From assembly GCF_024298765.1 (NCBI RefSeq), contig NZ_CP101212.1: a DNA stretch of 64,000 bases. One strand, 5' to 3'. This DNA comes from Escherichia coli. Its GTDB lineage: Bacteria > Pseudomonadota > Gammaproteobacteria > Enterobacterales > Enterobacteriaceae. A model generated the notes under the pieces. That model ran no database searches. It saw only the letters and a list, made by a program, of their open reading frames with translations, and was not told the DNA's origin. A program made the translations under genes and the position numbers. This document shows positions 9,106-12,060 of the stretch, piece by piece (positions within the stretch are counted from its first letter, which is position 1; the number at the start of each line of letters is the position of its first letter).

Positions 9106-9444
9106 TGAAGTGGTCAACAAAAACTGGCCACCGAGTTAGAGTTTTTCCAGTATCGATTTTCCGATTCGTTTGGGGATAACCCACCGTTATATTCGTGCGG
9201 TCTTAGTGCGCTGTAATATCCAACGATATAGACCGTTATGGCGTGAGCGGCCTCGCAGAAGCTTCGTAACCCACCACCGGCATCCATTCGTTCTTCAGAC
9301 TCCTGAAGAAGCGTTCCATTGGGCTGTTATCCCAGCAGTTTCCGCGCCGGCTCATACTCTGCCTGATCTGGTATCGCCACAATAACTGCCGGAACTGCCT
9401 GCTCGTATCGCTGTGGAACATCACCCCGCCGGGCTTACCCGTCC
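9106..9444 (-). pseudogene. IS911-like IS3-family orfB 3' portion with terminal IR, forming the 3' flank of the group II intron
   Basis: Minus-strand translation ...[11 protein letters not shown]...[25 protein letters not shown]... then after a frameshift ...[33 protein letters not shown]; TGAAGTGG terminal repeat at 9106. Confidence 0.55.
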
Positions 9445-11737
9445 AGAGTAGAGTAAGAGGCAGGGCGTAGTCGGACTATTTCCCTGCCTCTCCTCCCCGA
9501 ACCGGACGTGCACCTTTCAGCGCATCCGGCTCTCCATTTAAATGCTGGCGAACGCCATTGCCACTTCTGTAAAGCGTGATGTATACGTGTTTCTGGTCTC
9601 CGTCCTCAGATAGGGATTACCTTCGGGTAGCCGCCAGCGGAACAGCTTCTTGCCTTGCCCCACCAACCGGTACAGTATTTCGCCGCTGAGCTTGCCGTGA
9701 TTGGTTTTACCAAATAAAACCCACGTTTTGCTCTGACCCGGTTTCGGTGATTTACACCACCACCTCATCAGGGAAGCGATACCTGTACGGTATTTGCGGG
9801 CCAGCCAGTGAGCCAGCTTCCAGAACACGACACGGTCGATATAACTGAAGACTTTGGCCTTAAAATCAACGAACTGATAGAACATGGCCCAGCCTTTCAG
9901 TTTTCGGTTGAGTTGTTCAGCCATATCGACTTTGCTTTCACTGTAGTTGCCTGATAACAGTGCTGTCAGCGATGCGGCGAAGTTTCTGGCTTTCTCCTGC
10001 GGGATCGTTGAGACCACTCGCATCTCGCCATAACGACTGCGTTTGCGAATGATCCTGTGCCCCAGAAAGATAAAGCCGTCATTAACATGGGTGATTTTAG
10101 TCTTATCCATGTTCAGCCTGAGTTTCAGACTGCCTTCGAGCACACCCCGACACTCCTCCCTGATGGCTTCCGCCTGTGCTTTGGTGCCTTTGACGATGAG
10201 GACAAAATCATCGGCATAGCGGCAGTACGCCACCGCGGGTTTCCACTGCCAGTTTTCTCTGACCGCCGTACTTCGGCCCCGTTGGATACTGTTATTCCAG
10301 TACCACCGATCTTTTCTGGCTTTCCCGCTCAGGTAGCGCTCATGCAGGTATTGATCGAACTCATTCAGCATGATGTTCGATAATAGCGGCGATATAACAC
10401 CGCCCTGTGGCACACCTTCACTGGCCGCCCGAAAGAGACCGACATCGATATGTCCCGCCTTGATGGTTTTCCACAGCAGAGTCATGAAACGTGCGTCACT
10501 GATCCTGCGGCGTACAGCCTTCATCAGCAGTCGATGATGTACGGTGTCGAAGTAACTGGACAGGTCGCCTTCAATCACCCAGCGTCCCCGGGTTTCACCG
10601 CAGTCTGTGAGCTGTAATTTCACCGTGCGGATCGCGTGGTGGACACTGCGCTCAGGCCGGAAGCCATATGAGAGCGTATGAAAATCACTCTCCCATATCG
10701 GCTCCATCGCCATCAGCATGGCCCGCTGAACAATACGATCCCGCAACGCGGGGATACCCAGTGGTCGCAGTTTGCCGTTGCTTTTAGGGATGTAAACCCG
10801 TCTGGCGGGCAAGGGCTGGTAGTGGCCTGAGAGTAATTCATCCCTGAGGATTTGCAGCTCAACAGCCAGTCTGGCCTGTAGCATTGTTTTGTTCACGCCA
10901 TCAACGCCGGGGGTATGGGCCCCCTTTGATGAAAGCGTGATCCGCGCCGCTTCAGCCAGCCATTCTGGTTGTGTTATTAGACGCAGCAGCCGTTGAATCC
11001 GTAGGGACGGATCGGTGGCTGCCCATGTGGCAAGCTTGCGTTGCATTTCGCTGATTATCAAAGGTCTTCACCTCGTTAGGTCAGTTAATTCACGTCGCAA
11101 ACACATTCAAACTGCTTCCCTTCGCCATGTAATGGGCTTTCCCCATCGCGGACTACTACGGAAGCTCCGCCAGCCAGCGCGTCATCGGAGCCATGCCCCC
11201 TTAACATCCGTCGCTGACCTTCCCCGGTTTACCTGCCTGGACTCAGGCATACTGAGGAGGCTGCCCGTCGCACTCTTTATCCTTGCTTGCCGCAAGTTGG
11301 CAGAAGTCAGCAACGCAAGCGTGATAGACGCTGCTGCCCCGGTGTTTCGCATACATGTCAAAACACCTTCGACCGGCAGTGCTTACGTATCACTACCAGT
11401 TCCTCCTGCACGGCCTGTCAGATCACGTAGGCCGTGGTGACGTTTTCAACCCACAGAGGCGGATTAACGGGTTCATGTTCTTCAGCCTTTCAGTACTTAA
11501 CCTTGAGGATCATCTCGGCTTAGTGATCTCGCCTCAATCCCCGTTGTCAGCGGGTTACATCACCCTGCGGGCATGCCGCAGGTCACTGCCGCTCAGGTTC
11601 TCCACCGTCACACCCGGTGGGATTGTTGGGTTTCTCATCGTGAGTTACCGGTTCAATATTCCAGACAGACTCGCGGTTCATTTAAGCATCCATGCCCGCC
11701 CTGAACTCCGGGCACACTATAGGTCACATCACCGCAC
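9445..11737 (-). mobile_element. Bacterial group II intron (about 2.3 kb) with intron-encoded protein
   Basis: Domain V-like GAGCCGGATGCGCTGAAAGGTGCACGTCCGGTTC on the minus strand just 3' of the ORF; GTGCG at the predicted 5' end (11737); RT ORF in domain IV position. Confidence 0.7.
9538..11061 (-). CDS. Group II intron reverse transcriptase/maturase
   Basis: 507 aa with RT motifs including YADD, plus maturase-like C-terminus. Confidence 0.85.
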   Translation of the reverse strand: MIISEMQRKLATWAATDPSLRIQRLLRLITQPEWLAEAARITLSSKGAHTPGVDGVNKTMLQARLAVELQILRDELLSGHYQPLPARRVYIPKSNGKLRPLGIPALRDRIVQRAMLMAMEPIWESDFHTLSYGFRPERSVHHAIRTVKLQLTDCGETRGRWVIEGDLSSYFDTVHHRLLMKAVRRRISDARFMTLLWKTIKAGHIDVGLFRAASEGVPQGGVISPLLSNIMLNEFDQYLHERYLSGKARKDRWYWNNSIQRGRSTAVRENWQWKPAVAYCRYADDFVLIVKGTKAQAEAIREECRGVLEGSLKLRLNMDKTKITHVNDGFIFLGHRIIRKRSRYGEMRVVSTIPQEKARNFAASLTALLSGNYSESKVDMAEQLNRKLKGWAMFYQFVDFKAKVFSYIDRVVFWKLAHWLARKYRTGIASLMRWWCKSPKPGQSKTWVLFGKTNHGKLSGEILYRLVGQGKKLFRWRLPEGNPYLRTETRNTYTSRFTEVAMAFASI

Positions 11738-11819
11738 CACACCTGTATAGCGGCGTAATCCCCAAAAACGATGCTGGTTGTCAGTAAACAAGCCATGAAT
11801 GACAGTCGTTCCTGAAATC

Positions 11820-12060
11820 ATAAGACCTGGAGGAGTGTATGCTCCGTCGCAGTAATTACCACGATACGCTTGCAGAATTTTTTCCAGTTACTGAAGCGTG
11901 AACGGATAAAGAAAAAGCTCTTCGGAACGCGGGAAGACGCCTCCAACGATATTTTTGAACATCGAAATGTTTTATAACAATAAGCGTCGGCATGGTTCCT
12001 GCGAACAGATGTCAACAATAGAATATAAAAACAATTATTATCAACAACTTGGAAGGAGTA
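11820..12060 (+). pseudogene. IS3-family orfB 3' fragment, frameshifted
   Basis: Plus-strand translation ...NFFQLLKRERIKKKLFGTREDASNDIFE / FYNNKRRHGSCEQMSTIEYKNNYY across two frames. Confidence 0.35.

Follow-up and report, generated by a model that had tools for sequence, protein, structure and literature searches.

The 64-kb window analysed here (the whole stretch of Escherichia coli DNA, from contig NZ_CP101212.1) is part of a ColV-type IncF virulence plasmid and carries a group II intron on its minus strand, between the omptin gene ompT and the efflux gene etsA. Judged by its match to published copies, this intron is E.c.I4, an element that is already known, and it very probably retrohomed into a remnant of the insertion sequence (IS) IS911 that was dead before the intron arrived. 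An earlier sequence-only reading of the same DNA had pictured the intron as stranded by a rearrangement, with splicing or mobility impaired. Neither idea is supported, since hundreds of plasmids carry the identical remnant without an intron, and since the ribozyme, the open reading frame (ORF) and the exon positions pairing with the intron RNA are all intact.

5199-6158, minus strand: omptin gene (ompT)
12669-17188, plus strand: etsABC-like efflux genes
11717..9448, minus strand: full-length group II intron E.c.I4, 2270 nt, 5' GUGUG and 3' ...CUCUAC (placed by the empty-site allele, the Rfam end and other copies)

The boundaries at 11717 and 9448 are fixed independently by an intron-less allele, as the empty-site plasmid pMUB-MIN10-1 (L003) joins window position 11718 straight to 9447. 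On the minus strand, the 5' junction reads ...CAGGTGTGGTGCGGTGATGTGACCTATA|GTGTGCCCGG... and the 3' junction ...CCTCTTACTCTAC|TCTGGACGGGTAAGC...; the group II boundary consensus (5' GUGYG, 3' AY) is represented by GUGUG at 11717-11713 and by AC at the 9448 end. The length of 2270 nt and both ends are identical in 10 further copies fetched via the intron protein. The Rfam model for domains V and VI (RF00029) matched 9448-9534 (minus strand) over its full length, with 64.9 bits against a gathering score of 40, and its last model position coincides with 9448. This match, together with an ORF for a reverse transcriptase (RT) and maturase (Pfam RVT_1 and GIIM), bears out the earlier call of a group II intron on the minus strand. 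The extent given for it, 9106-12060, takes in the intron plus both flanks, the intron proper being 11717..9448.

Evidence for the order of events comes from plasmids that hold the same site with and without the intron. Empty sites were sought with a 500-bp query in which both flanks were joined without the intron, and filled sites with a flank-intron-flank query, each at a coverage of at least 80%. PLSDB has 315 plasmids with the empty junction and 15 with the filled one; among the records of complete E. coli genomes, the corresponding numbers are 373 and 15. The filled site also occurs on Klebsiella plasmids. The empty pMUB-MIN10-1 matches window 13000-11718 and 9447-5000 at 100% (7.4 kb), the two stretches being adjacent in that plasmid. 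A second backbone haplotype provides an equivalent pair: an empty plasmid (L031, CP099052.1) is 100% identical to the filled pECAZ147_1 (L002) over 9.9 kb. Because the same remnant, with 100% identical flanks, occurs without the intron in two haplotypes, and empty sites outnumber filled ones, the comparisons place the truncation of IS911 first and the insertion of the intron into the remnant afterwards.

Both exons derive from IS911 orfB, and the upstream exon abuts a fragment of a second element, here called ISx:

11718..11745, minus strand: 5' exon, the last 28 bp of IS911 orfB upstream of the intron, QVWCGDVTY (CAGGTGTGGTGCGGTGATGTGACCTATA), which holds the intron-binding sites IBS2 and IBS1 (placed by identity with longer IS911 copies)
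9106..9447, minus strand: 3' exon, an IS911 orfB remnant extending to the IS911 right end (9106), 342 bp (alignment to L001)
11746..12095, plus strand: ISx, a C-terminal fragment of a different, degenerate IS3-family element abutting the IS911 stub (six-frame translation, Pfam and annotation by the Prokaryotic Genome Annotation Pipeline, PGAP)

The 28-bp 5' exon is identical in six loci in which IS911 continues upstream (L001, L005, L006, L009, L013 and L014), while IS911 homology in the window stops at 11745. The sequence-only reading had found no matching orfB in the 5' flank, which these 28 bp (11745..11718) contradict. It had also named in advance two findings that would speak against it, a 5' flank aligning to IS911 and boundaries lying elsewhere; both were found in part, as the 28-bp alignment and the limits 11717..9448. 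Its account of homing in sense orientation into an IS911-type orfB agrees with our results, the 3' exon and the 28-bp 5' exon meeting at the canonical site. The orfB core peptides that it quoted from the 3' flank are present on the minus strand and end at the IS911 right end (9106), and the different IS3-family fragment that it saw upstream on the opposite strand is ISx, at about 11746-12095 (plus strand), with its rve_2 match. The missing IS911 5' half was sought, as that reading had proposed, and was not found within the 64-kb window, which also holds no other piece of IS911 and no second copy of the intron.

A functional IS911 comprises both terminal inverted repeats, orfA and orfB; what is left here is 28 bp plus a twice-deleted 342-bp right part. 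The 3' exon is contiguous with the native site for only 15 nt (+1..+15); beyond them, 129 bp are deleted in frame between GGTAAGC repeats, and a further 15 bp are missing later on. PGAP annotates this exon as 'integrase core domain-containing protein, frameshifted, incomplete'. The ISx fragment translates as FFQLLKRERIKKKLFGTREDASNDIF / IEMFYNNKRRHGSCEQMSTIEY and matches Pfam rve_2 (E=8.6e-9), while the equivalent of 11827-12095 (plus strand) is annotated by PGAP as a partial, frameshifted 'IS3 family transposase'. In pAPEC-O2-211A-ColV (L004), IS911 is absent and ISx is nearly full length, riddled with stop codons. Since ISx stands there almost complete without IS911, it is the older resident, which IS911 later entered.

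The identity of the intron was established by comparison with the literature. Intron nt 1-1764 are 99.6% identical to the K-12 ykfC fragment in prophage CP4-6, which lies directly after the IS911A-1 segment. The prophage CP4-6 fragment of 1764 bp has been named E.c.I4-tr1 (Leclercq et al. 2012, PMC3522654), and the K-12 match reproduces this published length exactly. Full-length E.c.I4 copies span 2271 bp (PMC3522654 supplement 4), the name covers copies within about 10% nucleotide divergence, and insertion takes place at specific positions of IS629, IS911, ISEc16 and ISEc31 (PMC3522654). In the window, the exon junction ...GACCTATA|TCTGGACGGG is the same as in whole IS911 copies, and the same intron sequence is found at the homologous site of IS911, IS629 and an IS1133-like element, in agreement with PMC3522654. 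E.c.I4 and S.f.I1 have been assigned to class A of the intron-encoded proteins (IEPs), a class without an endonuclease domain (Toro and Martinez-Abarca 2013, PMC3552965), which is listed with IIA-type RNA (Zimmerly and Semper 2015, PMC4424553 Table 1). On these sequence matches, the intron is E.c.I4 and its IEP belongs to class A, the name and class following those later papers and the class A placement being that of PMC3552965. Like E.c.I4 and S.f.I1 of Escherichia and Shigella, the window copy has the same length class, the IS911/IS629 orfB insertion point and an RT plus maturase without endonuclease. The element itself is no different from known E.c.I4; only the host site differs, a 28-bp plus 342-bp IS911 remnant replacing a whole IS.

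Across 5426 complete E. coli genomes, the intron matches 2668 (about half), and at least 80% of it is present in 1873 of these. On the chromosome of strain Santai (H56), a copy matches the window intron at 100% identity, and PGAP annotates the intron protein as ltrA. Two further observations concern the element at large. The K-12 small RNA EyeA is annotated within the E.c.I4 fragment (MG1655 272580-272654, L005) at intron nt 390-464; its equivalent is window 11328-11254 (minus strand), which is part of ribozyme domain I. An identical E.c.I4 copy also occurs in a third IS3-family element (L011 and L015), between a resolvase gene and aminoglycoside phosphotransferase genes, at the site GGATATAACGTATA|TCCCT. 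We take this context to resemble Tn5393/IS1133.

The intron protein is encoded in domain IV:

9538..11061, minus strand: IEP with RT (YADD) and maturase/X, without an endonuclease domain (ORF list, Pfam)

The ORF (9538..11061, minus strand) comprises 507 aa from a TTG at 11061, or 502 aa from the ATG at 11046 chosen by PGAP. The Pfam search yielded RVT_1 (E=1.5e-34) and GIIM (E=1.3e-10) but no HNH or other C-terminal domain, the protein ending about 75 aa past the GIIM match; as only these two domains were returned, we regard it as lacking an endonuclease domain. The 502-aa protein is identical to that of locus L016 (WP_001189111.1). Its nearest relatives of solved structure are LtrA (the best, E=2.2e-52) and the GsI-IIC RT. 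The intron of LtrA, Ll.LtrB (IIA, ML class), shares IIA-type recognition by two exon-binding sites, EBS2 and EBS1, and an adjacent delta position. However, LtrA has DNA-binding and endonuclease domains and works by target-primed reverse transcription after bottom-strand cleavage, whereas the E.c.I4 protein lacks both domains. RmInt1 of Sinorhizobium meliloti (class D) is likewise endonuclease-less and lives in an insertion sequence: it homes into ISRm2011-2, where a short DNA target, recognized mainly by EBS/IBS pairing, suffices. RmInt1 differs in its IEP class and in having IIB-type RNA, class A being of IIA type (PMC4424553 Table 1).

When described in 2013, class A comprised three members, all nearly identical. 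Relatives at 68-92% protein identity are now numerous (proteins P0001-P0120, loci L020-L030), with source labels that include Enterobacter, Rahnella, Legionella, Photobacterium, Endozoicomonas, Microbulbifer and other marine Gammaproteobacteria. Seven relatives were looked at more closely, and five of them share one insertion point, the D-x-T-Y codon block of an IS3-family transposase-like sequence. The other two, L021 and L023, lie in unrelated sites, yet these match EBS1 and most of EBS2.

A consensus structure for the ribozyme was obtained with RNAalifold from the aligned 5' parts of seven class A relatives (69-86% protein identity), a small set, with EBS/IBS as the tertiary contacts mapped. 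Exon-pairing elements were located by a scan of every intron window against the exons, across 10 intron/exon combinations. With the 3' elements from Rfam, this gave the following parts, supplying the fold of domains and exon-binding sites that the sequence-only reading had proposed as a check (domains I-III, V and VI, EBS1, EBS2 and delta):

11221..11717, minus strand: domain I, intron nt 1-497, closed by helix 6-10/491-495 (RNAalifold consensus, many compensatory pairs)
11172..11219, minus strand: domain II hairpin, intron 499-546 (covarying helix 499-505/540-546)
11120..11170, minus strand: domain III, intron about 548-598, outer limits approximate (helices 548-551/557-560, 565-567/592-594 and 571-576/582-587)
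9499..9532, minus strand: domain V (GAGCCGGAUGCGCUGAAAGGUGCACGUCCGGUUC; Rfam RF00029 and plastid D5 models)
9450..9496, minus strand: domain VI, with a bulged branch-point A at 9454, 7 nt from the 3' end (minimum free energy fold of the 3' 120 nt, Rfam alignment)
11439..11443, minus strand: EBS2, intron 275-279, 5'-ACGUC, in the loop of hairpin 267-282, pairing with exon -13..-9 (GAUGU = IBS2; pairing scan)
11350..11356, minus strand: delta (A362) plus EBS1, intron 363-368, 5'-UGUAUG, in the loop of hairpin 353-375 (pairing scan)

All six domains of a group II ribozyme are thus present, domains I-III being supported by compensatory pairs among the seven relatives; an Rfam search at a permissive E-value yielded no match to any group II D1-D4 model. 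EBS2 is the best of all windows for exon -13..-9, with 46 of 50 cells paired (mean 19.5, standard deviation 8.4). EBS1, the top window for -6..-1 with 54 of 60 cells, pairs with CCUAUA (IBS1) with a single C.U mismatch at -5. In relative L021, an entirely unrelated exon, AAUGGU, faces the loop ACCAUU, so that all six EBS1 pairs are compensatory. The delta position, A362, lies immediately 5' of EBS1 and pairs with a U at +1 in nine of the 10 cases, as expected for a delta of the IIA type. The exon positions that pair with EBS2 and EBS1 (-13 to -1) are all within the 28 nt retained upstream. Because every EBS/IBS position is kept, exon recognition for splicing and reverse splicing is, on this structural model, intact in the window copy.

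Two other arrangements were considered and dropped. The first EBS1 candidate, derived from three E.c.I4 target types, was intron 263-269 (UGUGGGU); a collinear EBS1-EBS2 guide strand was also considered. The candidate was rejected as U263 and 267-269 fall in predicted helices (with covariation only at 269-280) and as it fails for relative L021, while the loop at 363-368 scores higher and covaries perfectly. In a single-sequence fold, an exon-like stretch, GGUGAUGUAACCC (approx. nt 154-166), paired with 266-282 as an exon-mimic helix; this helix was dropped, as covariation places the GGUGAUGUAACCC stretch in helices 125-129/165-169 and 136-142/148-154.

The number of insertions is a separate question from their order. 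The empty plasmids of the two haplotypes (L003 and L031) differ by 41 mismatches and 3 gaps, and the introns of the window and pECAZ147_1 at five positions. Window and L016 differ by four positions in the intron and two in the 7.4-kb flank (p about 0.03). The remnant was probably invaded twice, recently and independently, by slightly different E.c.I4 variants. The plasmids pAPEC2908 of BEN2908 (L017) and pSCU-308-1 of SCU-308 (L018) were left out of this haplotype argument on account of many scattered single-base indels. These affect intron and flanks alike, with ltrA annotated as frameshifted or split, and probably represent sequencing error rather than decay; in records of this kind, a copy that looks disrupted calls for caution.

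Several points weigh against retrohoming into a dead remnant, or against its having happened twice. The difference between window and L016 could reflect gene conversion between intron copies and not separate insertions. The divergence of the intron between the two filled haplotypes (5 in 2270) is similar in order to that of the flanks (41 in 9923), and this similarity in size leaves a low probability that the intron was inserted in an ancestor and then precisely lost at least twice. Such a history requires a base-perfect deletion on two occasions, after which the derived, empty state would have become twenty times commoner. Finally, IS911 has lost its promoter and orfA here, and a scan for consensus promoters in the minus-strand sequence upstream of the intron found four sites where 3.4 are expected by chance.

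The last of these points also feeds the alternative that survives best, though we consider it rather unlikely: that the copy, though of intact structure, is never transcribed at this site and, as a dead passenger, neither splices nor serves as a donor. The lack of any promoter-like site above chance favours it, as does the fact that the ligated exons would encode nothing useful. As both exons are pseudogene debris, splicing, if any, would be without consequence for the host. On the other hand, the sequence is without decay, and in L018 and L019 the neighbouring IS629-like element also carries E.c.I4, which is compatible with local spread. No sequence feature of the window copy predicts impaired splicing or mobility; the exact empty/filled allele pairs in two haplotypes are indirect evidence of self-splicing and retromobility. 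A dead passenger, moreover, addresses current activity only and is compatible with an origin by retrohoming.

Much less probable is the scenario of the sequence-only reading, in which IS911 was still whole when the intron homed into it and lost its upstream half in a later rearrangement, so that the intron was left stranded and impaired. That IS911 breaks off 28 bp before the intron and there abuts an opposite-strand fragment of an unrelated IS3-family element fits such a history, as does the similar size of intron and flank divergence in the two filled haplotypes. However, the truncated remnant with 100% identical flanks occurs empty in hundreds of plasmids and in two backbone haplotypes, which would demand repeated, base-perfect loss of the intron leaving an empty state 20 times commoner; the survival of all RNA-pairing exon positions means that impairment would not follow anyway. 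Hardly credible, lastly, is the copying in of the intron from an intron-bearing IS911 by RecA-type homologous recombination or gene conversion: intron copies do recombine, as seen in the chimeric locus L012, where the 5' exon of E.c.I4 is of IS911 type and the 3' exon of IS629 type (PMC3522654 supplement 3 likewise notes an IS629/IS911 chimera as host), and the intron haplotypes in filled plasmids look mosaic, but acquisition from an intact IS911 is unlikely because the crossovers would have to fall within just 28 bp of homology upstream and 15 bp downstream, and because the 129-bp deletion was kept, when conversion would be expected to restore that segment.

We therefore favour retrohoming into the pre-existing remnant, and picture the history of the site as follows. 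An old IS3-family element, ISx, would have lain between etsA and ompT, and IS911 would have inserted into it. Deletion of the left approximately 730 bp of IS911 and most of ISx, with two further small deletions in the 3' part of IS911, would then have produced the remnant. The intron would have come much later and to a few plasmid lineages, when an E.c.I4 ribonucleoprotein, made from a different copy in the same cell, reverse-spliced into the canonical site of the remnant, ...GACCUAUA|UCUGG.... To recognize this site, EBS2, EBS1 and delta of the intron RNA would pair with DNA positions -13 to +1, probably aided by protein contacts slightly further out. We infer this pathway, in which reverse splicing of lariat ribonucleoprotein is followed by complementary DNA synthesis, along with its mode of priming. 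As the protein has no endonuclease domain, synthesis was presumably primed by the nascent strand at a replication fork. Such priming is established for other endonuclease-less introns; it has been shown for RmInt1 and is assumed for E.c.I4.

The empty/filled pairs amount to a natural homing experiment, which sets an upper bound on the E.c.I4 DNA target of about -28..+15. They indicate that a dead IS remnant still attracts the intron. We regard as evenly balanced the broader proposal that E.c.I4 has, at least twice independently, invaded a target of which no more than 28 bp upstream and, downstream, 15 bp of uninterrupted native sequence remained, and that dead IS remnants on widely transferred ColV plasmids then become lasting safe harbours from which new hosts are reseeded. 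E.c.I4 being a known element, what is new here is modest and limited to this in vivo target bound and the repeated invasion of a dead IS remnant on a widespread virulence plasmid; this is consistent with the published picture of recent, repeated E.c.I4 proliferation via mobile elements. The bound might also help in applying class A introns to gene targeting. The practical value lies in correct annotation: this is an intact, ordinary E.c.I4 in a normal target, and the surrounding pseudogene fragments are its exons.

The window also contains a potential second target and several structured RNAs:

7712-9009, plus strand: IS629-like IS3-family element
8048-8164: ALIL frameshift pseudoknot of the IS629-like element (120 bits)
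63063-63151: CopA RNA
17529-17652 (plus strand) and 32356-32477 (minus strand): STnc490 Hfq-binding RNA matches (135 and 90.8 bits)
25376-25457, minus strand: AAC_AAD_leader/attI match (68.8 bits)

Compared with L002, the IS629-like element has lost 14 bp at about 8271, a deletion that disrupts its orfB. pAPEC-O2-211A-ColV (L004) lacks the element, and the junction shows a 3-bp overlap. The E.c.I4 homing site of the element (GATTCTACTTACG|TCAGC, about 8478-8495, plus strand) is unoccupied in the window and has a weaker IBS2 match (three of five pairs) than occupied IS629 sites. In pSCU-308-1 (L018) and the ETEC4088 plasmid (L019), this neighbour holds its E.c.I4 copy in the opposite orientation to the first. 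The AAC_AAD_leader model covers an attI site, and its match suggests an integron elsewhere in the window.

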